Shown here one piece after another: positions 3,399 through 62,228 of a stretch of 64,000 bases of DNA. The stretch spans positions 27,264 to 91,263 of the forward strand of contig JAZDMV010000023.1 of the NCBI GenBank assembly GCA_043800535.1, in the 5' to 3' direction. Positions within the stretch are counted from its first letter, which is position 1; each line of letters starts with the position of its first letter. Both the position numbers and the translations under genes were made by a program. This stretch comes from a bacterium. GTDB lineage: Bacteria; Patescibacteriota; Minisyncoccia; Portnoybacterales; GWB1-42-6. Below the pieces are notes generated by a model. The model saw only the letters and a program-made list of their open reading frames with translations, was not told the DNA's origin and ran no database searches.

Positions 3399-3555
3399 AG
3401 TTAGTTCTCCTTTTTTAATAATAAAAAACTATACCTAAAAATTAGCATCCTTACGGCCTTTCCTCTATTCTAGCACAAAAAAATTAAGCAAGTAAGGCGG
3501 CGCTTTCCAGTTATCCACACGACATGCGTTTTTATCCTGTGATATAATATGCTAT

Positions 3556-5226
3556 ATGGATCAACCAACAAAAAAACTCGGATTGACCCTGCTTTTGCTC
3601 ATTTTAGCAATTGCAGTTTTTTTTAGATTCTATAAGCTGGACCAGATCCCGCCCGCCCTTTATCCAGATGTGGCGATTAACGGAACCGACGCGTTAAATG
3701 CCCTGCAAAATGATGATTTCAGAATTTTTTACCCGGCTAACAACGGCCGCGAGGGATTATTTATGAATCTTATAGCGCTCAGCTTTTCTGTTTTTGGCGC
3801 GAGCGTCTGGGCGATAAAGGTCGTAGCGGCGATGTTTGGTACGCTGACGGTGCTAGGCCTTTATTTAATGATCAAAGAAATGTTTAAAAACGGCTCAAAG
3901 AACGGCGAGTATATTGCGTTGCTTTCCGCTTTTTTTATTGCTGTTTCTTTCTGGCACGTCAATTTTTCACGGATCGGCTTCCGCGCTGTTATGGTGCCGT
4001 TTTTCCTCGTCTGGAGTTTATATTTTTTGTTTAAAGCTAGTAACTCGACACCAATACAAGAAATTTCCACGAATGACACGAAAAAAAATCCTCTTATTCC
4101 TTATTTCCTATTTCTTGTTTCTGGTTTATTATTTGGCCTCGGCTTCCATACATACATCGCTTTCCGCGTCGCGCCTCTGGTTTTAGTGCCGATCTTTATT
4201 TTTGACATGATAAAAAACTGGCCGCGGGTTAAGCTGGGCCGCTGGTTTATTTTTGCGTTCGGCATAATTTTGGCCGTCTCGCCACTTGCTTATTATTACT
4301 TAAATAACCCGGCTGACTTTATGGGCCGGGCGGGACAGGTTTCAATTTTTGCCTCTGCCAGCCCCATAAAGGCACTCTTTGACGCGACGCTCAAAACTTT
4401 AGGCCAGTTCGTTTTCCGCGGCGACTATAACTGGCGGCACAATCTTTCGGGCGCGCCGCAGGTGTTCTGGCCGCTCATTCCTTTCTTTTTGCTCGGCCTT
4501 GCTTATTCACTTATTCAAATATTCAAAAAACAAAATTATATTCAAAGATCCTGGGCTTTGCTTTCCTGCCACTGGTCACTCGTTTTTCTCTGGGGAACGA
4601 TGCTTTTACCCTCAATTCTGACCAACGAAGGCCTGCCTCATGCCCTGCGTTCTATCGGCGCAATTCCCGCCACCTTTATTTTTGTGGGTGTGGGCGTTTA
4701 TTTGGCCATTGATTATCTAAATTCAAAACTATTAAAATACGAACATCTTCTTTTTGCTTATAAATACGCGGCCGCCGGGCTGTTTGTCTTGCTTTTGATT
4801 AGCATTGCCGGCTTTTCTTATTACCAGTATTTTATCTACTGGGGCGAGCATCCAGAAACCGAAGGCGCTTTCACTAAAAAATTTGTTGACGAGGCCTTAT
4901 ATCTTAAATCCCTGCCTTCCGCTGTAAAAAAATATGTGGTGGTCAATGAAAACGGCACGGCTGTGCCATATCCTGACGGCATTCCCATGCCTGCCCAGAC
5001 CATAATGTTCCTTACACAAACAAGCCAACCGCCTGTCCAGGTACAGTATATTAAACACAATCAACTGGCGGATTTGGCGCAAATATCTGATCTTAGCTCG
5101 CCCGTCGTTATATTGCCCATGAAATACGACCAAGAAATCTTCCGGCAGCTCTGGAATATGTTTCCGTATTCGCAAACAGAAATAATGGAAGCCAGCGGCT
5201 TCGCTGTTCTAAAAATCAATTTCTAA
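3556..5226 (+). CDS. Polytopic membrane glycosyltransferase of the ArnT/PMT family (GT83/GT39-like).
   Basis: There are 12 or more hydrophobic segments. The N-terminal region YPDVAINGTDALN...NGREGLFMNLIA is typical of ArnT-like undecaprenyl/dolichyl-phosphate-sugar transferases. Confidence 0.65.
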   Translation: MDQPTKKLGLTLLLLILAIAVFFRFYKLDQIPPALYPDVAINGTDALNALQNDDFRIFYPANNGREGLFMNLIALSFSVFGASVWAIKVVAAMFGTLTVLGLYLMIKEMFKNGSKNGEYIALLSAFFIAVSFWHVNFSRIGFRAVMVPFFLVWSLYFLFKASNSTPIQEISTNDTKKNPLIPYFLFLVSGLLFGLGFHTYIAFRVAPLVLVPIFIFDMIKNWPRVKLGRWFIFAFGIILAVSPLAYYYLNNPADFMGRAGQVSIFASASPIKALFDATLKTLGQFVFRGDYNWRHNLSGAPQVFWPLIPFFLLGLAYSLIQIFKKQNYIQRSWALLSCHWSLVFLWGTMLLPSILTNEGLPHALRSIGAIPATFIFVGVGVYLAIDYLNSKLLKYEHLLFAYKYAAAGLFVLLLISIAGFSYYQYFIYWGEHPETEGAFTKKFVDEALYLKSLPSAVKKYVVVNENGTAVPYPDGIPMPAQTIMFLTQTSQPPVQVQYIKHNQLADLAQISDLSSPVVILPMKYDQEIFRQLWNMFPYSQTEIMEASGFAVLKINF

Positions 5227-5481: not shown

Positions 5482-7602
5482 ATGTCTGAAACCTTAACCA
5501 AATCTATCGCCGCCTTGCTTTTAATTTTCATGATCTCCGTGGCCTATTACTCCATGCTTGATGATTCTGCCATCATGGACGAAGTTTCGCATCTGCCGGC
5601 CGGATATTCATATGTCAGCCAGGGCGATATGCGCATTAACCCCGAACATCCGCCGCTTGTCAAAGACCTTGCCGGCGGCGCTGTATGGCTCGCTTCAAAA
5701 ATTTATAATATCCAAATTGCTTTCCCTTCAAGCAGCCCTGCCTGGCTCGCCGAAACACGAGGCGCTATAAACAGCCAGTGGAATTTTGGCTTTGATTTTA
5801 TGTATGGCCAGGGCAATCCGGCTGATTTTATGCTTTTTGTCGGCCGCCTGCCTATGCTTTTTATCCTGCTGGTTCTGGGCATTTATATTTTCCGCTGGAC
5901 AAAAGAAATTTTTGGCAAACAGGCGGCGCTTCTGGCTTTATTTCTTTTCGCTTTTTCGCCGACCTTTCTTGCGCACGGCCGGCTCGTTACCACTGATGTG
6001 GCCGCCTCTGCCGCAGTTTTTATCGCTACCTACTATTTTATCCACTGGCTGAAAAAACCAACTGTCTGGACTCTGTTTTTTGCCGGTCTTTGGTTTGGCA
6101 TCGCGCAGCTCGCAAAATTTTCGATGTTTCTGCTCGTATTGCTATTTGGATTTATGGTTATTGCCTGGATAATACATAAATTAATCAGCAATAGAGTCCA
6201 AGCGCCCGAACCTCTTTCTGACGCTTTATACAAAACGCCCGGCAAAGATAATAAAAAAGCGACATCATTCAAGATCGCATGGCGGCATCTTGGTGGCCTT
6301 GTCTTTATCTTTCTTTTTGGCTATGGTTTTGTCGTCACGCCTGTATACTATTTTCACATAAAGAATCTTCCCGCGGAAAAACAACGCCAGGAAGCTGTCT
6401 GCGTTCTTGCGTCCTACGCGGGCGGACCGCTGGATGTAAAAACTCTGGAACAAAAGTCAAGCGAGTGGTGCATGCAAAAGCCGGAGATTGAATTAGCCGC
6501 CTGCAAAACCCCAAGCCGTATCACGCGCTGTCCTGCCGACATTGCCGTTTGGATGTCTGATAAAGCCACACCCTTGCGTGCCTTTGGCCATTATCTTTTG
6601 GGTCTTGTCATGGTTGTCCAGCGGGCAAGCGGAGGCAACACAACTTTCTTCTTAGGCCAGATTTCTGCTGCGGGCTGGAAATCATATTTCCCGATTATTT
6701 ATCTGATCAAAGAACCTCTGACATTGCATATTTTTACACTCATTGCTCTTATCACCCTTGCATATTACTTTGTCCAAAAGAAAACAAAAAAGACAGAGAT
6801 TCCTTTACCGCCGAGCCAAGCCAGCATGCTTAGTAAAATTTCTGGCTGGCTTGAAAAAAATATCGATGCCTTTGCCATGCTCGTTTTTATCGCGCTTTAC
6901 TGGATAACCAGCTTAAGCTCTAACTTAAACATCGGAGTCCGCCACATCCTGCCGACTTTTCCGCTCATCTACACGCTTGTTTCCGGCCAAATAATTTATT
7001 GGGCGAGGAATAAAAAACATGAACCGCTGTCTACATTCCAGCCAAATAGCGCCTTGTCAGCGCAACCACACGTATTATATGATACACGGATTAGTAAACA
7101 AACCAATTTCACGCCTCTAGTGAAGAAACAAAAAACTTACCTTTACGCAAAATACGGAGCAATTTCCGCTTTGGTCGGCTGGCAGGCGGTTTCCGTTATG
7201 GCCGTTTTCCCGTCATTTTTGGCATATTTCAACGAAAGCGTCGGTGGGCCGGGACAGGGATATAAATATGTGGCTGATTCAAATCTTGACTGGGGACAAG
7301 ATTTAGTACGCCTCAAAAGCTGGGCCAGTCAGCAAGGTATCCAGAGACTTTATGTTGACTATTTTGGCGGCGGAGATGCCAAATATTATTTGGGCGATAA
7401 GTTCCAGCCCTGGTGGGGAGACCGAAATCCGTCTGACCTGAAAAGCGGCGACTGGCTTGCTGTTTCAGCCACGTTTCTGCAGGGCGGCCGCGGAAAACCC
7501 GCGCCTGGTTATAAAGACAAAACGGGCTACTACGACTGGCTTAACAACTTGCAGCCAAAAGCGGTTATCGGATATTCCATCTTTGTTTATCAGATACCCT
7601 GA
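5482..7602 (+). CDS. Phospholipid-carrier-dependent glycosyltransferase of the PMT/GT39 family.
   Basis: A DEVSH...PEHPPLVK first-loop motif is present, with many TM helices. The likely start is the ATG at 5482 (MSETLTK) rather than the ORF-track start at 5422. Confidence 0.65.
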   Translation: MSETLTKSIAALLLIFMISVAYYSMLDDSAIMDEVSHLPAGYSYVSQGDMRINPEHPPLVKDLAGGAVWLASKIYNIQIAFPSSSPAWLAETRGAINSQWNFGFDFMYGQGNPADFMLFVGRLPMLFILLVLGIYIFRWTKEIFGKQAALLALFLFAFSPTFLAHGRLVTTDVAASAAVFIATYYFIHWLKKPTVWTLFFAGLWFGIAQLAKFSMFLLVLLFGFMVIAWIIHKLISNRVQAPEPLSDALYKTPGKDNKKATSFKIAWRHLGGLVFIFLFGYGFVVTPVYYFHIKNLPAEKQRQEAVCVLASYAGGPLDVKTLEQKSSEWCMQKPEIELAACKTPSRITRCPADIAVWMSDKATPLRAFGHYLLGLVMVVQRASGGNTTFFLGQISAAGWKSYFPIIYLIKEPLTLHIFTLIALITLAYYFVQKKTKKTEIPLPPSQASMLSKISGWLEKNIDAFAMLVFIALYWITSLSSNLNIGVRHILPTFPLIYTLVSGQIIYWARNKKHEPLSTFQPNSALSAQPHVLYDTRISKQTNFTPLVKKQKTYLYAKYGAISALVGWQAVSVMAVFPSFLAYFNESVGGPGQGYKYVADSNLDWGQDLVRLKSWASQQGIQRLYVDYFGGGDAKYYLGDKFQPWWGDRNPSDLKSGDWLAVSATFLQGGRGKPAPGYKDKTGYYDWLNNLQPKAVIGYSIFVYQIP

Positions 7603-20635: not shown

Positions 20636-21673
20636 TTAAAATTTTAACAATAAATTTTCTAAAATTAGCCTGGCGTTGAAGCTGCTTTCACCAAGTAACC
20701 TTTGCGTCTCCTGAATATTTTTTATCAGGACACAAATTTTGCTAAACGGATATAAGCCGCTTTTTTCTTCCAGAATAGTCAGATTTTTTGCACCAACGCC
20801 CGCCAGCATCTGATCCCGAAACCAAACCAACCACTGCCCCAAAGCTTCTTGGGCTTCGGGCGTATTTTGCGCCATTTTCTGGGCATATCTGAACCTCTCG
20901 GAAAAATCTTTTTTTATCAGGTATTTCAGGTCGTCAACTAGTTTTTCCTGCCTCTGCCACGCCTCGTCTTCATTTAAAAGCGATACTGCCGCGCCCGGCC
21001 TGCCGGCTGATAATCTAGCCGCTTGTTTTATTTTTTTGTCATTTCCTGCACCAAGTTTTTTTAATCCTTCGGCGATCAAATTTTCTTTTACTGGCAGAAA
21101 TTTTATCAATTGGCAGCGCGAAACAATTGTTGCAAGAAGCGCCTGCGGCCGGCTCGTTATCAAAATCAACAAACTTTTTTGCGGTGGTTCTTCAAGCGTT
21201 TTTAAAAGGCAATTAGCCGCTTCCTGCGTCATTTTATCTGCTTCGTCAATAATTATCACTTTTTTTGTCGCAGAAAAAGGCGTTAAGTTCAGCTGATGCT
21301 GCAATTCGCGGATCTGGCCGATTTTTATTTCCTTATTTTTTACTTGTTCTTCCTCTTTCTCACCATTAATTGCTGCTTTGCTGCTTTCGCCGCCTGGTAC
21401 AACAAATAAAACATCGGGGTGCCTCCCTTGTTCAATCAGCAAACAGTTACGACACTTGCCGCCACGCTCAGCGTGGCTAGAGACGCGCTCAGCGCGCTCG
21501 CAAGCGCCGGAACCATCCGCCGCGTTTTGACATAAAAGCGCCTTTATAAATTCAAATGCGACTATTTTTTTTCCAACCTTCGGCGGACCGGCAAAAAGAT
21601 AAGCATGCGCCATGCGCCCGGTCTTTATGCTTCGCGACAAAAAATCAATAATTTTTTGATGGCCGATAATCAT
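20636..21673 (-). CDS. holB: DNA polymerase III subunit delta' (HolB).
   Basis: HAYLFAGPPKVGKK...LLCQ...GKCRNC...HPD. It carries a 15-aa palindrome-encoded insertion in the zinc-module loop (see findings). Confidence 0.75.
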   Translation of the reverse strand: MIIGHQKIIDFLSRSIKTGRMAHAYLFAGPPKVGKKIVAFEFIKALLCQNAADGSGACERAERVSSHAERGGKCRNCLLIEQGRHPDVLFVVPGGESSKAAINGEKEEEQVKNKEIKIGQIRELQHQLNLTPFSATKKVIIIDEADKMTQEAANCLLKTLEEPPQKSLLILITSRPQALLATIVSRCQLIKFLPVKENLIAEGLKKLGAGNDKKIKQAARLSAGRPGAAVSLLNEDEAWQRQEKLVDDLKYLIKKDFSERFRYAQKMAQNTPEAQEALGQWLVWFRDQMLAGVGAKNLTILEEKSGLYPFSKICVLIKNIQETQRLLGESSFNARLILENLLLKF

Positions 21674-29085: not shown

Positions 29086-29102
29086 CTCCTTTTTTAAAAA
29101 AG

Positions 29103-29232
29103 AACAAAAAAAGTGCTCTAAAAGTTACTGCCAGGGACACCATTTCATACACCGGGTTCTCCCTACAGGCCGTTCGCGCCTGACGCGCCCCAGCTTCACC
29201 TCGCCTACGCCACCTGACACAATAACTAAAAG
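29103..29232 (-). ncRNA. Candidate small structured RNA or palindromic element (~130 nt) closed by an 8-bp terminal stem (AGTGCTCT/AGAGCACT). Its identity is unknown.
   Basis: GC-rich interior with nested hairpins (GCGC-ctgac-GCGC and others) in an AT-rich context, located between rpsI and the next gene. There are weak SRP-RNA-like words (GTCAGGT, GAAGC, CUGGCAG) on the minus strand. Confidence 0.3.
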
Positions 29233-29262
29233 AGCACTTATTTTTATTTACCGACTGCTGGA

Positions 29263-30143: not shown

Positions 30144-30168
30144 AATGATTTTATCAATCGTCTCACGC

Positions 30169-37195: not shown

Positions 37196-39028
37196 TTATT
37201 CCAAAACGGCCTTGATGCGCCTAACCCCAGCCGAACTTGCCTCTTCCTTAACTATTTTGAATCTTCCTAATGCACTAGTCCGCTCAACGTGAGGACCGCC
37301 GCAAATTTCGCGACTGAAATTTCCGATACTATAAACCTTGACCCTCTCCCCGTATTTTGATTCAAACACGCCCATCGCGCCTTTGGCTTTTGCTTCGTCC
37401 AGCCCCATTTCTTTCATTGCCACCGGTAAGTCAGCCATAATTTGTTCATTGACAATCTCTTCAACTTTTTTAATTTCTTCTGGCGTCACTTTTTGTGGAT
37501 GCGAAAAGTCAAAACGCAATCTTTCGGCCGTGATATTTGAACCTTTCTGCGTGACATGATTGCCAAAGACTTGCCGCAACGCCTCAAGCATAAGGTGCGC
37601 GGTTGTATGATATTTGACCACTTGCTCGGAATGGTCCGCCAGCCCGCCTTTGAATTTCTGCTCTGCTCCGGCGCGAGAAAGTTCCTGATGCCTGATCAGC
37701 TCTAAATTGAATTCCTCCCTTAACTTCTTATCATTCGACCAATATCCATGATGCTCAAAGTATTCTTTCGTCATTTCGTAAGGGAAACCGTACGTTTGGT
37801 AAAAATCAAAAATTAATTTACCTGTTAAATCACCCTCTTTGATTTTCTCAATAAATTTTAGAGCCTTGTCTAGAGTAACAACAAACTTTTCTTCTTCCCT
37901 TACGAGCCGCTCTTCAATGAACGCACGATTATTATGCAACTCTGGATAAACGTTTCGGTACATTTCTATAACAACATCCGCGACCTTAAATGTAAAAATC
38001 TCACTAATGCCAAGCTGTTTGCCGTATCGCACAGCGCGGCGGATAAGACGTCGAAGCACATAGCCGCGTTCAACGTTTGACGGCTCAAGCCCTTCGGCCA
38101 AAATAAACGTCGCCGCTTTTATATGATCCGCTACAATGCGCACGGCGCGTGTTATTTCCAGCGTTTCGCCGTGTTTTTTCCCCGAAAGCTCCTCAGTCTT
38201 TTCAAAGATCGGATAAAATAATTCATTATCAAAAGTATCTGTTTTGCCGTTTAGAACAGAAATTGTCCTTTCGAGCCCCATGCCTGTGTCCACGTTCTGC
38301 TGTGACAATTTTTCATAAGTTCCGCCTTCGGTCTTATTGAATTCCATAAATACGTCGTTCCAAACTTCCATGATCCTGCCCGCATCCGCTTCTTCGCCAA
38401 AAGTTTTTTGAAGTGCGCCCAAATCCGGCGAAACGTCGTAAAACATTTCCGTGTCCGGCCCGCAGGGCCCGGTTTGGCCAGCCGGCCCCCACCAGTTATC
38501 TTTTGCGGGCAGGGGAAAAATCCGAAAATTTTCATTGCCGGCGATCGTTGTGCCAAACGCACAGACCTCGGCATTAATGCCCGCTTTGGCGAACTGCGTT
38601 TTCCAGGCATCAATTGATTCCTGGTCAATCGGCGAATTTTCGTCACCCATAAAAACACTTATGTATAACCTTTGCGGTTCAAGCCCCAGCCATTTTTTGT
38701 CAGTTAAAAATTCCCAGCTCCACTCAATCGCCTCTTTTTTAAAATAATCACCGAGCGACCAATTGCCCAACATCTCAAAAAAAGTTAAATGACGGTTGTC
38801 GCCAACGTCGTCAATATCGGTTGTGCGGATGCACTTTTGCGCGTCAGCCAGCCGCTTGCCGGCCGGATGGCTCTGTCCCAAAAGATACGGCACGAGCGGA
38901 TGCATTCCGGCAGTCGTAAAAAGTACGGTTGGGTCGTGTTCGGGAATCAAAGGAGCCGAGGGAATTACTGCATGCCCCTTTTCTTTCATAAAATCCAGGA
39001 ATTTTTTACGTAGTTCGTTTGCGGACAT
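37196..39028 (-). CDS. alaS: Alanyl-tRNA synthetase, short form. The catalytic, tRNA-recognition and editing domains are present, but the C-terminal C-Ala domain is absent.
   Basis: N-terminus FTTAGMHP...NWSLGDYFK, and editing-site sequence HTTAHLMLEALRQV...GGPHVERTS. At 610 aa it is shorter than the ~870 aa typical of bacteria. Confidence 0.8.
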   Translation of the reverse strand: MSANELRKKFLDFMKEKGHAVIPSAPLIPEHDPTVLFTTAGMHPLVPYLLGQSHPAGKRLADAQKCIRTTDIDDVGDNRHLTFFEMLGNWSLGDYFKKEAIEWSWEFLTDKKWLGLEPQRLYISVFMGDENSPIDQESIDAWKTQFAKAGINAEVCAFGTTIAGNENFRIFPLPAKDNWWGPAGQTGPCGPDTEMFYDVSPDLGALQKTFGEEADAGRIMEVWNDVFMEFNKTEGGTYEKLSQQNVDTGMGLERTISVLNGKTDTFDNELFYPIFEKTEELSGKKHGETLEITRAVRIVADHIKAATFILAEGLEPSNVERGYVLRRLIRRAVRYGKQLGISEIFTFKVADVVIEMYRNVYPELHNNRAFIEERLVREEEKFVVTLDKALKFIEKIKEGDLTGKLIFDFYQTYGFPYEMTKEYFEHHGYWSNDKKLREEFNLELIRHQELSRAGAEQKFKGGLADHSEQVVKYHTTAHLMLEALRQVFGNHVTQKGSNITAERLRFDFSHPQKVTPEEIKKVEEIVNEQIMADLPVAMKEMGLDEAKAKGAMGVFESKYGERVKVYSIGNFSREICGGPHVERTSALGRFKIVKEEASSAGVRRIKAVLE

Positions 39029-40449
39029 ACAAAAATAGACAGAAAATTTTTACTTTATTAATAAATCTTAAAACCAAATCTCGCCCGCCATGGCTTTAGC
39101 GGCGGCGGGGCGGAGTTCGTTTGCCGTCATGCCTGTAATTTATCACAAAATCGCAATTTCGACAACCACGGCATCACATAATGGCGTCTCGCGCCGCAAA
39201 CTAGACAACCCTATGCCAAAAGTCAAAGGTTGTCTTGTGGATGCGCCATCTTTACAACAAAACCGCCATATGTTATATATTAATTGTACCTTTCAAATAC
39301 TCATTTCTTAGGCTATTTTATTCCGATATTCTATTAGGACACTCTATTTTTCCTATTTCACAGGAAAGGAGGTGTACATGAGACATTCCGAGCGTTTCTT
39401 TTCACATTATCTGGCCTTTTTCGACTCCAGAGCAGGTCCTACGATAGTGCCTACATTCCGCAAGAATGAAAGGGGGTGATAAAAATATGCGGGGCCGTGT
39501 TATCGGTCCTGAATGTTCATTTTTTACTTCGCCTTTTTGGAGGCATGATGCGTAATAGATTCCTCTGACAATTGAATGTATTTTCTTGCCGACTTCTTCT
39601 GAAGCCGGGGCCAAAATGAGCGACTAGCGTCGCACAGGCCGGTCCGACAAGCTCGGACACGAAAAACGGCCAAAAAGAAAAGAACGGGAAAAGAGGGGTG
39701 CAAGGACGTATAGCAAGGCGTAACAGCAAGAAACACACAAGCAAAGGCCATCAAGGTCATCAGGCGGAGCGGCCTTGAGCCAACAGACCGCCTCCGGACA
39801 GTGGGCATGTTAAAATCCGGGATTTTAGGACCGAGGTCTGGCTGTGCACGTGCACGCGCCAAAGAAATGCTTCGGTCGCGCAGAAGAAAGCGCTGCCAGA
39901 CGCCTGCTGCCGATTTCGAGCGAAGCGCAGAGACATCCGGCCCAGTGCCTGTTCTCTCAAAGGCTTTGCCGTCGTCATGCGCTCTCATTTTGTTCCCTCG
40001 TCTCATACTACAGTTCTTGCCCCCTCAATTCCCAACAAAAAAGACCTTCATCGTAAGGTCTTTTCTTTTACCCCCACACCAAGTTTTGGTGTGGGGGTTT
40101 ACAAAAAATTTTCCTGCCTGTGGATAATATTCTTTACAAAAACCCGTCAAAATGATATAAAGGAAATAGGTAATAGTTCTCTAACAAGAAAGGGAGAGGC
40201 GGGGCGCGAATACCAATAAATCTTCATTGCAACACTGAACTTATTTTAATACTCCCTCCTCACCACGGGGGCCACCTCCTCCCCCATCACCCATATCCGG
40301 CACCTCCTTTCTAGCCGCCTCGCCTCTTCCCTTTCTTTCTATATAAAAGCTCCCACCATCGGGAGCTTTTTCTTTTTTATTTAGACACCAAAACAAGCCA
40401 CATTCTGACAGAAATACCCGCGCTCTGGAGCGCGGGTATTTCTGTCACG
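39029..40449. other. Roughly 1.4 kb apparently non-coding, GC-enriched region with multiple hairpins and terminators and two tiny SD-preceded ORFs.
   Basis: No ORF with a plausible protein in any frame. Plus-strand terminator-like hairpins lie at 40042..40060, 40071..40097 and 40348..40380. Mini-ORFs at 39378 (26 aa) and 39476 (21 aa) each follow an AAGGAGG/AAGGGGG box. Confidence 0.5.
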
Positions 40450-41802
40450 TTACTGAATTACTCCTCCACCCAATAGTTCACCTTTTTTGCTATAGAACAC
40501 CGCGCTCTGTCCCGGCGTCACCGCCCGCTGGGGCTTGCCGAAAATTACACGCACAGTGTCATTGCGAGCCCCGACGTGAAATCGGGGCGTGGCAATCCTG
40601 TAAATAACAGCCGGACTAGCTTCGCTCTTATATCTTATTTTTATCAAAACTTCCTGCGGCAATTTTGCCTGCCCTCCGTAGCCTTGCCTGCCCGCAGTAG
40701 CTTTAGCGAAGGAGGGGCGGAGGCGGGGCGCTTGCCTGCTTGTCCAATTTATATTGCCCGCCGCCAGTTCTTTGCTATACAGATCTTTTTCATCGTTGCT
40801 GACATATAAAATATTTTTGCGCGTGTCTTTTTTAACCACCCACCACGGCCCCTGGTTCAATGGAATATTTTTACGCTGCCCGATGGTATAAAACGCTAGA
40901 CCCTGATGTTCACCCAAAATTTTACCATCTTTCAATTTGTCATTCCCGCGAAAGCGGGAATCCAGACTGGATACCGGATCAAGTCCGGCATGACACGAAT
41001 TATAATCTACTATTTTTCCTAGCTTCATTTTTATATATTTTTTCAAAAAGCTTTCAATATCGCGCGCCACAAAACAAAGATCAAAGCTCTCGCCCCGCCT
41101 GAAAGACAGTCTCCATTTTTTTGCTAATTTATACACTTCCTCTTTCGTATAGTCGGCCAAAGGAAATAATACGCGACTCAATTGCCTCTGTGTCAACGCA
41201 TACAAAAAATATGACTGATCCTTATCTTTATCCTTGGCCTTAAAAATTGTATACGTGTCATTGCGAGGAGCCCCGCACCGTGCGGGGCGACACGGCAATC
41301 CCAAAATGATATCGCCAACGGCTGTTTGCCTCGGGATTGCTTCGCCCCGACTTACATCGGGGCTCGCAATGACGCTACTTTGTATTTTCGCATAATGCCC
41401 GGTGGCAATATAATCAGCCCCCATGCCGAGCGCTTTTTTGAATAAAAGCCCAAACTTAATTTTTTTATTGCACACAACGCACGGATTTGGCGTTCGCCCG
41501 GCGTCGCTCTCGCGCAAAAAATGATCAACTACTTCTTTTTTAAATTCTTTCCCCAGGCGCAGGATATAAAAAGGGATGTCTAGTTTTGAAGCCACGTCTC
41601 TAGCCGCCTGCTCTGCACCCGCGCTACAGCAAGTATTTGTAGCCGCAAAGCGTGCATTCGGCTCTGCCCAGAAACGCATAAAAACGCCAACGACATCATA
41701 TCCTTGCTTTTTTAATAACGCCGCTGCCACAGAAGAATCAACCCCACCAGACATTGCAACTATTACTTTTCCCTTTGATTTGCGCATATTCTCTTCTATC
41801 AT
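40450..41802 (-). CDS. mnmA: tRNA-specific 2-thiouridylase MnmA carrying four in-frame palindromic-element insertions.
   Basis: VIVAMSGGVDSSVAA PP-loop...GADYIATGHYA...KDQSYFLY...AVTPGQSAVFY. It is about 83 aa longer than E. coli MnmA. The ORF-track start at 41970 is probably too far upstream, and the ATG at 41802 (MIEENMRKSKGKV) follows a terminator. Confidence 0.75.
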   Translation of the reverse strand: MIEENMRKSKGKVIVAMSGGVDSSVAAALLKKQGYDVVGVFMRFWAEPNARFAATNTCCSAGAEQAARDVASKLDIPFYILRLGKEFKKEVVDHFLRESDAGRTPNPCVVCNKKIKFGLLFKKALGMGADYIATGHYAKIQSSVIASPDVSRGEAIPRQTAVGDIILGLPCRPARCGAPRNDTYTIFKAKDKDKDQSYFLYALTQRQLSRVLFPLADYTKEEVYKLAKKWRLSFRRGESFDLCFVARDIESFLKKYIKMKLGKIVDYNSCHAGLDPVSSLDSRFRGNDKLKDGKILGEHQGLAFYTIGQRKNIPLNQGPWWVVKKDTRKNILYVSNDEKDLYSKELAAGNINWTSRQAPRLRPSFAKATAGRQGYGGQAKLPQEVLIKIRYKSEASPAVIYRIATPRFHVGARNDTVRVIFGKPQRAVTPGQSAVFYSKKGELLGGGVIQ

Positions 41803-41843
41803 TTTATTTTTTAGAATAACATCATTTTTGCCAAAAAGAAAAG

Positions 41844-41870
41844 CCCCGGATGAACATTGTTCATCCGGGG
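41844..41870 (-). terminator. Intrinsic terminator after the MYG1-like gene.
   Basis: Perfect 13-bp inverted repeat CCCCGGATGAACA-t-TGTTCATCCGGGG, followed on the minus strand by CTTTTCTTTTTGG. Confidence 0.6.
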
Positions 41871-41884
41871 CCACAAAAAGGGTA

Positions 41885-42979
41885 CTAAGCGGCTTTCTTA
41901 TGATAAAGATTGAACCGCTTATCCCTGCACTTTCTGAGCCCCCAGACATACTTTTCGCACCACCGCCCATTGCACTTTACCTCCTTGCATGGATCAACTA
42001 AGGGTGCACAAGCCAAAGCAATTGCCCCAGCCACTTCCATAAAAGAGAGGGCTGTTGGTTCCTTATCGGGCGCCGAGAAGCTCCCATTAAGAAGCTGACT
42101 CTTGTCCTTTTTGGAATAATACCAAAAATGGCATTTATCGCAATCCTCGGCCACCTCCATCTCCTGCCAGTCTGGCAGAATAATCTTACGTTTTACCAGC
42201 TCCTGCATCCGTACAATCCTTACCACATCAATAAAATTAATTTTCCGCTGAAAATCTGGCGTGGTGAAGATTGCCGTATTGCCAGTGGTGCGCCGCTGAA
42301 TTATAATATCAACCATGTCGCCAAATCTCCAACGGATCCATTTGTTCATCTTACGGCTATCTGATTCAACAACCGCGATTCCAACCGGACCTTTGATAAT
42401 CCGGCCTTTTTCACGAAATTCGTCTTCGCATTTAAAAAAGCGAATTTGGCCGCGCAGATGACGACGAATCCCATCCACCGCCCAATCAAACGCTGCTGGT
42501 AATTCCTTGTCACTCTCGCAATCATCCCAACCATCATTTAAAAGCGAGTGGATATCAAATGGCATACTTCGGCCTTCATCATCCACCCTTTTGCAAAATT
42601 GCAGGATCTTCTGCAGCTCTGGTTTGTGAGAAATCTGTAAAATTTCCGCCGCCAGATGCGCGCAGGAGGAAATACCTTTTCCGTGCTCGTCTAAAATTCC
42701 TCCCCCGATACCGATCGGGAGAATTTTGTCCTTTAATAAGATCTCGTCACCGCTCTTGCCTTTTGCATCCTCTGGCACGCGGCCTTCCGTCCAAAATTCC
42801 ATCCTTGCCTTTTCAACGCCAGGGAAGATTCCTCTGCCCCACGTCACACATTCTACGTATGCCAGAACCTCATCAAAATGCGGCATATTGTGAGTTGCAA
42901 TTTTCTTGACTGGCCACGGGCCAACACCTCCTAACCGCTTCTGCCACCATTTCAACTCTGTGCTCGCCATTGTCGCCAT
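41885..42979 (-). CDS. MYG1/UPF0160-family metal-dependent hydrolase with a Cys-rich C-terminal tail.
   Basis: IATHNMPHFDEVLAYV resembles the MYG1 N-terminal HxxxHxDE motif. The C-terminus is CDKCHFW...CAPLVDPCKEVKCNGRWCEKY. Confidence 0.5.
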   Translation of the reverse strand: MATMASTELKWWQKRLGGVGPWPVKKIATHNMPHFDEVLAYVECVTWGRGIFPGVEKARMEFWTEGRVPEDAKGKSGDEILLKDKILPIGIGGGILDEHGKGISSCAHLAAEILQISHKPELQKILQFCKRVDDEGRSMPFDIHSLLNDGWDDCESDKELPAAFDWAVDGIRRHLRGQIRFFKCEDEFREKGRIIKGPVGIAVVESDSRKMNKWIRWRFGDMVDIIIQRRTTGNTAIFTTPDFQRKINFIDVVRIVRMQELVKRKIILPDWQEMEVAEDCDKCHFWYYSKKDKSQLLNGSFSAPDKEPTALSFMEVAGAIALACAPLVDPCKEVKCNGRWCEKYVWGLRKCRDKRFNLYHKKAA

Positions 42980-43162
42980 TTTCGCACCCTCCTTAAATGA
43001 TATTTTAAGGTTAAATTTTAAAGAACCCTATCACCTGTTCACCAAGAACTCCCATTTTTCCCTCCTTTTGGTTGAATTTTGAATACACATATTATAATAG
43101 ATAGCTAACCATATGTCAAGAAAAGTTGCCTCCCTCAAAAAATCATGCTATAAATATAATAC

Positions 43163-51039: not shown

Positions 51040-51084
51040 ACAATATTATATTGGCAATATACTACATAAATGCTTTTTTGTCCA

Positions 51085-51210
51085 CCCCGCCTAGAAGTTA
51101 CTCAAAAAATTGCCGACATTTACAAGAGCAAGCCGCAGGCGATTCGCTGGAAAACATTCACCAACCAAACACGTTGTCGAACTTCTGGCGGGGTCAAAAC
51201 TTTTTTTGTT
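51085..51210 (+). ncRNA. Candidate ~125-nt structured RNA closed by a 14-bp terminal stem and followed by a U-run. Its identity is unknown.
   Basis: CCCCGCCtAGAAGTT...(90 nt)...AACTTCTGGCGGGG, then TCAAAACTTTTTTTGTTG. It lies in the secD upstream intergenic region and has internal GCGATTCGC and GGAAAAC features. Confidence 0.3.
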
Positions 51211-51215
51211 GTTGA

Positions 51216-51244
51216 GCGGCGCCCCGCACGGTGCGGGGCGCCGC
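51216..51244. repeat. GC-rich palindrome GCGGCGCCCCGCAC-g-GTGCGGGGCGCCGC.
   Basis: The CCCCGCACGGTGCGGGG core recurs at 7645..7661 and, with the central GG replaced by CC, inside the mnmA insertion (41271..41287). Confidence 0.6.
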
Positions 51245-51319
51245 GGCTATCTTCCCTGTAATGATCAGACGCCTGAAAAAAATCAGGCCGGACAAAAATG
51301 TCCGACCTGCCTTTACAAC

Positions 51320-52681: not shown

Positions 52682-52701
52682 AAAACAAATTTATCAGCAA
52701 A

Positions 52702-62027: not shown

Positions 62028-62143
62028 AATTTTTTTTACAATAGATTTTTTTATTTTTAAATATTTATTCCCTATTTATTATATTACGCTTGATTTTAAA
62101 AAATGCAACACTTTTTGCAAAAAAATCGCTGTGGATAAAAAAA

Positions 62144-62223
62144 CTACGGATTACAGAATTGTACTTACATACAGAATAAATTTATTTTTATCTGTATATC
62201 TGTAATTCATCTGTATTCTGTAG
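62144..62223. repeat. AT-rich palindromic intergenic element, family CTACGGATTAC...GTATTCTGTAG (copy 2).
   Basis: See 60086..60168. It lies between the murB stop and the hpf start. Confidence 0.6.
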
Positions 62224-62228
62224 CTAAT

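Follow-up and report, generated by a model that had tools for sequence, protein, structure and literature searches.

The 64,000-nucleotide (nt) stretch of DNA analysed here, hereafter the window, has a guanine-plus-cytosine (GC) content of 44.3% and carries its genes mostly on the minus strand; a greedy set of open reading frames (ORFs) covers 89% of it, close to the ~90% given in an earlier note on this DNA. Its longest non-coding gap, at 39029–40449 (coordinates are positions in the window unless another locus is named), lies between alaS and mnmA, where that note had correctly placed it, and the next largest gap measures 648 nt. The GC enrichment described earlier was also recovered: 46.7% in the gap versus 36.6% in other intergenic DNA, with 55.9% in a core at 39683–40036, 19 points above the remaining intergenic regions. 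The gap splits into four objects, namely a leader of alaS, two predicted plus-strand RNA genes termed W_long and W_short, and a terminator palindrome of mnmA. In our assessment it is probably an "RNA island", in which W_long and W_short are tandem paralogous genes of a new, lineage-restricted family of structured RNAs, and the combination of such genes with an alaS leader is likewise judged a fairly probable explanation of the whole. Judged from its AlaRS sequence, the host is a genome of the Patescibacteria (Candidate Phyla Radiation, CPR) whose relatives include Moranbacteria and Falkowbacteria. When GTDB species representatives were searched, nearly all of the 80 best AlaRS-encoding loci came from metagenome-assembled genomes of Moranbacteria, Falkowbacteria and other Parcubacteria, at 53–66% identity. 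L-numbers below (L089, L084 and so on) label the related Patescibacteria alaS loci used for comparison.

Two predicted RNA genes on the plus strand

Read from 5' to 3', W_long comprises a U-rich leader, Shine–Dalgarno (SD) sequences with mini-ORFs, an A-rich linker, a closed GC-rich domain and a terminator. The features of both genes and of their flanks are as follows.

37196–39028, minus strand: alaS, the gene on one side of the gap
39152–39238, unstranded: divergent control region between the alaS and W_long promoters, with three GACAACC boxes, two direct within CGCAAnnTnGACAACC and one inverted
39237–39279, plus strand: W_long promoter, with GTGGAT box, TTTACA, 17 nt and extended -10 box TGTTATATA; conserved in L089 and L084
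~39287–40069, plus strand: predicted W_long RNA, ~0.78 kb, with its start site placed by the -10 box and its 3' end by terminator T1
39364–39374, plus strand: SD1 GAAAGGAGGUG, a perfect complement of 40301–40311 in W_short
39378–39479, plus strand: mini-ORF 1, 33 codons (MRHSERFF...), not conserved
39468–39555, plus strand: SD2 (GAAAGGGGGUG) and mini-ORF 2, with ATG at 39487 and 22 codons ending in TAA TAG; not conserved as a protein
39686–40033, plus strand: closed structured domain, 55.9% GC, with helices P1 (39686–39707/40013–40033) and P2 (39716–39720/39999–40003)
39762–39767/39788–39793 and 39924–39950/39961–39983, plus strand: helices P3 and P5 of this domain, from folds and comparison with L089
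40043–40069, plus strand: terminator T1, GACCUU-CAUCGU-AAGGUC followed by UUUUCUUUU; an A-run before it makes T1 bidirectional
40071–40097, plus strand: 12-bp GC hairpin CCCCCACACCAA / UUGGUGUGGGGG, then only UUU
40120–40161, plus strand: W_short promoter, with GTGGAT box, TTTACA, 17 nt and TGATATAAA; paralogous to 39237–39279 and very close to the L084 promoter
~40169–40380, plus strand: predicted W_short RNA, ~0.21 kb, with its own promoter and terminator
40255–40313, plus strand: three CCUCC (anti-SD-like) motifs, with CACCUCCU (40273) and CACCUCCUUUCUA (40301–40313) in predicted hairpin loops
40345–40380, plus strand: W_short terminator AAAAGCUCCC-ACCAUC-GGGAGCUUUU with a U-rich tail, which would also serve mnmA on the other strand
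40450–41970, minus strand: mnmA, the gene on the other side, with its gene end at 40450

In a search with the pattern TT[GT]ACA-N16-18-TAWAWW, six matches were found on both window strands, five of them intergenic; real genes follow two of the six, at distances of 48 and 112 nt, and the gap holds another two (39251–39279 and 40133–40161). The W_long and W_short promoters are 72% identical over 29 nt, and each is preceded by a GTGGAT box, around which W_short and L084 share 20 of 23 nt. Both W promoters had been missed by a standard promoter scan because it demanded T at the last -10 position. When the box was included in the pattern (GTGGA-N5-14-TT[GT]ACA-N16-19-TATAWA), only W_long, W_short, L089 and L084 matched in 1.07 Mb on both strands. 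By sequence, W_long and W_short each have their own promoter and a Rho-independent terminator on the same strand, with no coding overlap, the features by which an independent small RNA (sRNA) gene is recognized. In addition, G·U pairs and U-tracts, like the promoters, point to the plus strand as the one from which both RNAs would be transcribed. The only other plus-strand match to the full -35/-10 pattern lies at 62035–62063, in an intergenic region of 201 nt (62028–62228) with 21% GC and no plus-strand gene downstream; it may mark another small transcript or be a chance match in AT-rich DNA.

Within W_long, SD1 is a perfect complement of what we take to be the canonical 3' tail of 16S rRNA (the host 16S lies outside the window). 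The mini-ORFs that follow the SD sequences have 33 and 22 codons, which replaces the 26 and 21 amino acids (aa) reported earlier, and the frame of mini-ORF 2 runs on to a GACTAG that is also found at the end of the L089 ORF. The AAGGAGG boxes had been regarded as unusually strong for this genome, a view that was not sustained: the window has 17 copies, several before real genes. The stem of T1 covaries and its CAUCG loop is kept among family members. The hairpin at 40071–40097 may act as a reserve terminator or protect the 3' end, and the GACAACC boxes upstream of W_long are candidate operator sites for a regulator. At L089, GGACAAACC stands beside the promoter of its RNA gene. All three terminator-like hairpins quoted in the earlier note exist, two with U-rich tracts (40043–40060 with a U-tract, 40345–40370 with one of 11 nt); the third, at 40071–40097, has only UUU, and the number of such sites does not exceed chance, since the loose rule of the scanner finds three versus 2.6 expected in shuffled sequence.

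W_short shows the family traits in condensed form: the promoter, a AAGAAAGG(G/A)AG tract and a terminator with a CAUCG loop. A C-rich core is enclosed by a closing helix of 20 bp (40186–40206/40316–40337), whose 5' arm is formed by the SD-like tract AAGAAAGGGAGAGG. From these shared sequence features, W_short appears to be a shortened tandem paralogue of W_long. Its loop sequence CACCUCCUUUCUA shares 13 nt with the presumed canonical 3' tail of bacterial 16S rRNA (again, the host gene is outside the window) and contains the exact 11-nt complement of SD1 (40301–40311 versus 39364–39374). The best predicted duplex between W_short and SD1 scores -25.8 kcal/mol, versus -19.9 ± 2.8 for shuffled W_short, and 2.5% of the shuffles score as well, a result that is suggestive only. 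On the minus strand, W_short also carries a perfect SD AAAGGAGGTG at 40241–40294, followed after 6 nt by a 17-codon ORF MGDGGGGGPRGEEGVLK, which is considered a probable by-product of the plus-strand anti-SD motifs but may be coding.

Conservation and folding in related genomes

Homologues of W_long were found at the same place and in the same orientation in metagenomic relatives: L089 (JGI 3300009538), L084 together with L085, which is the L084 region on another contig's record, and probably L082. The setting of the RNA gene is shared by all four genomes: it occupies the mnmA–alaS interval, is antisense to both neighbours and converges with mnmA. The homologous intervals are as follows, in coordinates of the respective loci.

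L089, 4750->4128, minus strand: W_long homologue, identified by sequence
L084, 7018->6652, minus strand: W_long homologue, identified by sequence
L082, 7871->7235, minus strand: probable W_long homologue, identified by architecture

By flanking genes, L089 is the closest relative (80–83% amino-acid identity, 53–54% identity at four-fold degenerate sites). With blastn, W_long was found to be colinearly similar to the L089 minus strand at 4130–4790; the promoter and 5' leader match at 74% over 66 nt, several short blocks follow, and the 3' 140 nt match at 74%. Because the identity of these blocks, ~74–76%, exceeds the 53–54% seen at four-fold degenerate sites, they are conserved above the neutral level. 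In blastn and nhmmer comparisons of the gap with the 80 GTDB alaS loci, matches were confined to the alaS leader. L084 shares the TGTGGAT box, an identical -10 box TGTTATATA, the leader motif UUUAUUUGGCU, AAGAAAGGAGG, the closing helix AUGAGGGGGAGG / CCUCCCCCUCAU and an AAAAAAG followed by the terminator. On the same strand and in the same place, L082 has a TTGACA-17-TGcTAAATT promoter, two SD/mini-ORF pairs, a strong terminator and a 258-nt domain closed by GAGAAGGAGAGGC / GCCUCUCCUUCUC; it is counted only as a probable member because its sequence is too diverged to align. No further members were found by fuzzy motif searches across the related loci compared, both matches to the pattern scan in viral contigs were due to chance, and three contigs picked through a neighbouring 364-aa protein all stop short of the gap.

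Across the family, the GTGGAT-box promoter, the leader/linker pairing, the perfect SD-like tract, the purine-rich/C-rich closing helix (GAGGGG / CCCCCUC), the A-run and the terminator are conserved. The ORF after the SD has 33 and 22 codons in the window, 51 in L089, six in L084 and 19 and 23 in L082, shows no similarity between members and is absent from W_short, and the size of the core varies from 110 to 330 nt. Since the frame is conserved while ORF and core size vary, the function would be exerted at the level of the RNA and not of a peptide or toxin.

Independent minimum-free-energy (MFE) folds of the window and L089 yielded the same terminal helix (P1a–c), P2 and a three-tier hairpin (P5a–c), and the base of hairpin P3 (AGGCGG / CCGCCU) is present in both. 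Between the two sequences, 45 pairs in eight helices were compared: 35 are identical, seven compensatory and two one-sided (G·U to G-C or A-U), with none broken. RNAalifold applied to part of P5 supports two of the compensatory pairs. MAFFT and RNAalifold alignments of two or three sequences were too poor to use, four or five sequences are too few for a statistical covariation test, and register shifts obscured a column-by-column count over the terminator stem. Furthermore, the leader motif UUUAUUUGGCU is complementary to the linker sequence GCCAAA(A)GAAA, and the two form a long-range helix around the SD and mini-ORF, with 13 of 14 pairs in L084 (in the MFE fold), 11 of 12 in L089 and a weaker version, by inspection, in the window.

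The folding z-scores of whole units, whose boundaries were chosen on helices, were compared with a background of sampled 200-nt genome windows (mean -0.47, standard deviation 1.41):

W domain: -3.7 to -4.7
L089 domain: -5.7
L084 unit: -6.2
W_short core, without terminator: -5.2
L082 domain: -2.7 to -3.5

The dense structure described in the earlier note is thus borne out for whole units, at -3.7 to -5.7, and not at a local scale, where 200-nt z-scores are ordinary except at terminators.

Interpretation of the predicted RNA genes and competing explanations

Coding readings of the gap were examined at several levels. All 27 ORFs of at least 20 aa are short or of low complexity, and the earlier statement that no credible ORF exists agrees with the searches. 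The longest, an Arg-rich ORF of 160 aa on the minus strand (39524–40006), had no Pfam match, one low-complexity match among 1.84 billion representative proteins and no counterpart in L089; a 108-aa plus-strand ORF had no match among 5.8 billion proteins, and none of nine gap ORFs searched against Pfam matched. The alaS-leader hairpin was the sole match both for tblastn with 77 ORFs from the mnmA–alaS gaps of relatives and for tblastx with the region, tblastx matches between the gap and relatives were equal across all frames, and the indels between W and L089 have lengths that are not multiples of three. A frameshifted pseudogene, which the earlier note had named among the outcomes that would overturn its proposal, was not found in these searches, nor was a protein-coding gene with homologues or frame-specific conservation.

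Known RNA classes were also searched for. Rfam 15 gave no match at gathering thresholds in the whole window and four related loci, and at E<=10 only sub-threshold matches to terminator hairpins and to the mnmA palindrome were obtained in the window and relatives; none of the classes suggested earlier (tmRNA, RNase P, 6S, signal recognition particle RNA, T-box, introns) was among the matches at either threshold. The palindrome at 40406–40447 is the source of spurious miRNA and istR matches, the latter at 32 bits versus a gathering score of 45. ARAGORN detected no tRNA or tmRNA. RNase P was rejected on the absence of CR-I/CR-V motifs and of an Rfam signal. A 6S RNA is a long irregular hairpin with a central bubble between closing and terminal stems; W_short has a 20-bp closing stem followed by a ~105-nt largely unpaired core with non-complementary halves and did not match RF00013, and this assignment was rejected as well. 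No blastn match that would indicate a mobile-element or phage origin was found in phage or plasmid collections. Among the explanations offered in the earlier note, one or more stable or regulatory RNAs is the option that the evidence favours.

Both predicted RNA genes lie on the strand opposite mnmA and alaS, each with a promoter and terminator of its own, and share one frame: a TGTGGAT box, near-consensus -35 and extended -10 elements, a U-rich leader, an SD-like purine tract, a purine-rich (GAGGGG)/C-rich anti-SD-like (CCCCCUC) helix closing a GC-rich core, an A-run and a terminator. The RNA, and not a peptide, would be the conserved product, because the tiny ORFs after the SD are unrelated in sequence and length. 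The long RNAs are predicted to expose or switch a perfect SD tract, for which the anti-SD-like 3' arm CCCCCUC could compete. W_short would bury its own SD-like tract in the closing helix and display 16S-tail-like CACCUCCU(UUCUA) loops, which could pair with the W_long SD or with strong SDs generally. The preferred guess at a function, held with low confidence, is riboregulation of ribosome access: W_long would be a decoy or regulatory RNA that carries an SD, and W_short would antagonize it, or SDs in general, through its anti-SD motifs. Less likely is outright mimicry of translation initiation, in which the long form, with its perfect SD tract and no meaningful ORF, would be a decoy for the 30S subunit or 16S tail, or a ribosome "parking" RNA, the short paralogue would show mimics of the 16S 3' tail (CACCUCCUUUCUA), and alaS would be controlled by an upstream ORF (uORF) copying its own N-terminus. 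If this were true, the pair would adjust translation, either globally or where it depends on an SD, in an organism using leaderless as well as SD-led mRNAs.

Several observations count against the proposal of a tandem RNA family. Transcription of both genes is predicted from sequence features. The family comprises only four or five members at one locus in one clade, the membership of L082, though probable, is based on architecture instead of sequence, and a scan of JGI metagenomes with a 20-nt pattern gave four matches, all by chance. The covariation count derives from a hand alignment that is open to selection bias, and local 200-nt folding z-scores, in a sampled scan, are ordinary outside terminators. 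W_short has no homologue outside this genome; since L089 and L084 lack it, the long RNA can do without it. Equally plausible readings of W_short are an insertion with hairpin ends, resembling a transposable element of the miniature inverted-repeat type (MITE), or a minus-strand ORF of 17 codons behind a perfect SD. Clusters of three CCUCC motifs are not rare either, with ~19 in 1.07 Mb (both strands).

One rival explanation is that these are small-protein genes, in which strong SDs drive functional mini-ORFs and the GC-rich domain is only a stabilising 3' untranslated region. Perfect SDs stand at proper spacing before AUG in W_long (twice), L089, L084 and L082, and this genome uses AAGGAGG for real genes. 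The dissimilar ORFs, one of them broken by TAA TAG and none present in W_short, speak against it, as they do against the conserved leader or toxin peptides suggested earlier; there are no protein-family or homologue matches, and conservation falls in the promoter, leader, helix arms and terminator instead of the ORF. This explanation is accordingly thought unlikely, slightly more so than initiation mimicry. The same pairing potential could be read as a type I toxin–antitoxin-like system, in which long-range helices would keep W_long, a toxin mRNA, inactive and W_short would be the antitoxin sRNA that pairs with the SD of W_long. The long-range helix does enclose the SD and ORF, an 11-nt perfect complement of the SD lies in a W_short loop, and the two genes are adjacent; against this, no conserved or clearly hydrophobic peptide is encoded, the L084 ORF has only six codons, W_short is missing in L089 and L084, and the complementarity is no greater than that of any SD to an anti-SD. 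Of the explanations considered, it is given the least credence.

Neutral or decaying DNA, in the form of remnants of lost genes (SLT_2, small genes) or hairpin-ended mobile elements with chance hairpins and promoter words, would suit a spacer whose content differs among relatives, from 51 nt to 5.5 kb, in which palindromic insertions are active (a 72-nt insert distinguishes L083 from L086) and local z-scores are ordinary. This is judged improbable, only marginally less so than a toxin–antitoxin system. The gap shows no translated similarity to any gap gene of a relative, its conserved blocks exceed neutral identity, all substitutions in the 45 helix pairs keep pairing, and promoter and terminator position and orientation are kept in three to four genomes; a reduced genome would, moreover, be unlikely to retain 1.4 kb of junk. 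On sequence grounds, the most likely verdict is therefore a new bacterial RNA family of narrow distribution, apparently CPR-specific and present here as a tandem duplicate, beside a conserved leader derived from a palindromic repeat.

Known systems offer partial parallels for the W family. In RNAIII of Staphylococcus aureus, a short ORF with an SD lies in the 5' part and a structured domain in the 3' part, and Rsa RNAs have C-rich loops. Like these and SR1, the dual-function or SD-targeting RNAs of Gram-positive bacteria, the W family combines an independent promoter with an intrinsic terminator, and C-rich loops complementary to the SD resemble the W_short loops CACCUCCU and CACCUCCUUUCUA. 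It differs in having no sequence or Rfam relationship to them, in its unconserved mini-ORF, in an SD tract that is the most conserved single-stranded feature, and in its restriction to one CPR clade and one locus. With hok/Sok, aapA1/IsoA1 and tisB/IstR, whose type I toxin mRNAs are locked by long-distance pairing of their 5' and 3' parts, it shares heavily structured RNAs ending in terminators, a long-range helix enclosing the SD and short ORF, and a predicted neighbouring sRNA complementary to the SD region. In contrast to those systems, it has no conserved hydrophobic toxin, its ORF shrinks to six codons, the putative partner sRNA occurs in one genome, and the istR match in Rfam reflects terminator hairpins only.

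To our knowledge, regulatory and structural RNAs of Patescibacteria/CPR are almost wholly undescribed, and a full-text literature search found no description of non-coding RNAs (ncRNAs) of this kind in Patescibacteria. Genomes in this group measure ~1 Mb and are believed to have lost most regulatory functions. A family with strong promoters, conserved structure and a tandem duplication, situated between two translation-related genes, would rank among the first lineage-specific ncRNA families for CPR. Its hallmark, in which a perfect SD tract precedes a throw-away ORF and is locked by arms of anti-SD type, points to control of ribosome recruitment. If the elements were inert, the locus would still document an active insertion hotspot in a reduced genome. 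Long GC-rich intergenic regions (GC-IGRs) are a hallmark of structured ncRNAs in the approach of the Breaker laboratory (PMC6429828; PMC8632094; PMC8723152). As the window's longest intergenic region, with a core 19 GC points higher, the gap would be flagged by that criterion; in contrast to the families found there, the W motif was not reported, and Rfam 15, which holds those families, gives no match.

The alaS leader and the surrounding spacer

The remaining two objects of the gap, the alaS leader (39029–39146) and the mnmA palindrome, contain the following features.

39029–39067, minus strand: A+U-rich spacer from the uORF stop to the alaS AUG, without SD, partly resembling the promoter region upstream of the uORF
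39068–39130, minus strand: leaderless uORF MTANELRPAAAKAMAGEIWF*, 20 codons, with ATG at 39130
39082–39112, minus strand: GC hairpin CG(C)CCCGCC / GGCGGGCG with a 14-nt loop, inside the uORF (codons 7–17); a dispersed palindromic repeat
39137–39145, minus strand: extended -10 box TGATAAATT, 6 nt upstream of the uORF ATG; the alaS promoter
40406–40447, unstranded: mnmA palindrome, perfect over 20 bp, right after the mnmA stop, identified by a repeat search; it is the mnmA 3' hairpin, separate from the RNA genes

The first 20 nt of the uORF are a 17/20 copy of the alaS start (MSANELR, codons 1–7), located 102 nt upstream of it, and a unit of uORF and hairpin is found 98–110 nt before alaS in 11 of ~88 related Patescibacteria loci. 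A covariance model built from ten leader units gave full-length matches confined to those alaS loci, with 91% of cells paired in the hairpin and two compensatory pairs in ten sequences. At L077, a different and longer hairpin occupies the same spot, with a uORF of nine codons and one Ala; because a hairpin is kept there with so short a uORF, the hairpin, and not an Ala-rich peptide, is the conserved feature of the leader. A hairpin-only model also matched within mnmA of the window (40687–40718), in L088 (1510–1541 and 15–46), L007, L027, L029 and L089. The exact core motif occurs twice in the window versus 0.07 times expected, and the repeat lies in-frame inside mnmA (peptide RPSFAKATAG) in both the window and L088. 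The alaS-leader hairpin therefore belongs to a dispersed palindromic repeat resembling repetitive extragenic palindromic (REP) sequences, Rickettsia palindromic elements (RPEs) or MITEs. The start of the uORF tracks the alaS start of its own genome (the two copies share N4 in the window, K4 in L088 and EIR in L027), which suggests gene conversion or selection.

An extended -10 box 5–9 nt before the start codon is also found directly before alaS in the insert-free relatives L084 and L086. Extended -10 boxes (TGnTAWAWW) were likewise observed 5–9 nt before several gene starts of the window, at 3540–3548(+), 43146–43154(+), 52688–52696(-), 30148–30156(-) and 20641–20649(-). Because the boxes sit so close to the starts, leaderless mRNAs are apparently frequent in this genome beside SD-led ones, and the sequence suggests that they are common. 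The ancestral leaderless alaS start has apparently been displaced by ~100 nt through a unit in which a copy of alaS codons 1–7 is fused to a GC hairpin of the dispersed palindromic repeat, and alaS translation could have been made to depend on the leaderless uORF and on melting of the hairpin. The leader would be a retained palindromic-repeat insertion or duplication and possibly a translational control element; the constant spacing of 98–110 nt in 11 divergent genomes suggests that it was kept as a leader and is not a mere selfish insertion. It would represent a concrete case of a leaderless essential gene coping with, or exploiting, a palindromic insertion at its start codon.

The earlier note had seen the hairpin 5' of alaS as a leader attenuator. 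As a conserved leader element it stands; a classical attenuator does not fit its single hairpin and inconsistent U-run. For the alaS leader alone, a leader-peptide transcription attenuator, in which an Ala-rich uORF would sense Ala-tRNA and control a terminator hairpin, is accordingly held to be unlikely. The uORF is 20–30% Ala in nine of 11 loci (four to six Ala in 18–31 codons), the hairpin sits within it, and a U-run follows the stem by a few nt in the window and L089. These points are offset by the uORFs of L007, with two Ala, and L077, by the absence of an antiterminator alternative, and by a U-run that is absent or distant in most other loci; moreover, the Ala-richness stems from the reading frame of the repeat, because the same hairpin is in-frame in mnmA. 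As in the pheST, thr, his and trp leader-peptide attenuators, a short ORF rich in the cognate amino acid precedes a synthetase gene with a leader hairpin; unlike them, the alaS leader has no alternative hairpins or consistent U-tract, and its uORF is leaderless and copies the AlaRS N-terminus. In Escherichia coli, alaS is autoregulated at its promoter, and a full-text literature search found no described alaS leader-peptide attenuator. A T-box leader, which spans about 200–300 nt and has a stem I with specifier loop and a T-box sequence/antiterminator, was rejected for a leader of only ~100 nt with no RF00230 match even at E<=10. Translational bypassing across the leader was also rejected, because a stop or take-off context is missing and alaS starts from an AUG of its own.

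RPEs and REP/MITE-like repeats are known to insert into genes. The alaS-leader palindrome resembles them in being dispersed and also in-frame in mnmA, and in the polymorphism of a 72-nt insert between near-identical contigs; it differs in coming with a ~20-nt copy of the alaS start at a constant distance to alaS in 11 genomes. The 72-nt palindromic insertion was observed exactly at the alaS ATG in L083 (8001–8072) and L087 (108–179) and is absent at L086 (1395); it has 20-nt inverted ends, and in-frame read-through would give a 24-aa extension. The spacers upstream of alaS are 99.8% identical between L083 and L086 despite this insertion. Because such near-identical loci differ by an insert at the ATG, the alaS 5' end is an active insertion site, and the difference speaks for ongoing insertion or excision of hairpin elements.

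In relatives, the mnmA–alaS spacer measures 51 nt to 5.5 kb and contains assorted small genes, an SLT_2 gene or an RNaseH-like gene, and from these comparisons it appears to be a variable hotspot. The window has no SLT_2 (lytic transglycosylase) gene; L089 and L084 have one between the RNA gene and alaS. Elsewhere in the window, three further intergenic regions are GC-rich (45–47.5% versus the intergenic mean of 36.6%), at 2168–2685 (518 nt), 29086–29262 and 51040–51319; they gave no Rfam match at gathering thresholds, no dedicated RNA-gene search having been made there. Palindromic repeat copies of the CCGCCGAAGCTTTAGCGAAGGCG type occur in L089 at 4830–5010 (-), between the RNA-gene promoter and the SLT_2 gene, and in L084 at 7100–7170 (-). 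The mnmA gene of the window carries several in-frame insertions of GC-rich palindromic repeats, with peptides RPSFAKATAGRQGYGGQA, SRFRGNDK-like and IASPDVSRGEAI-like, and its product is ~80–140 aa longer than the proteins of relatives. An N-terminal extension of its longest ORF reaches 86 nt into the upstream 364-aa ORF and comes with an AAGGAGG of its own.

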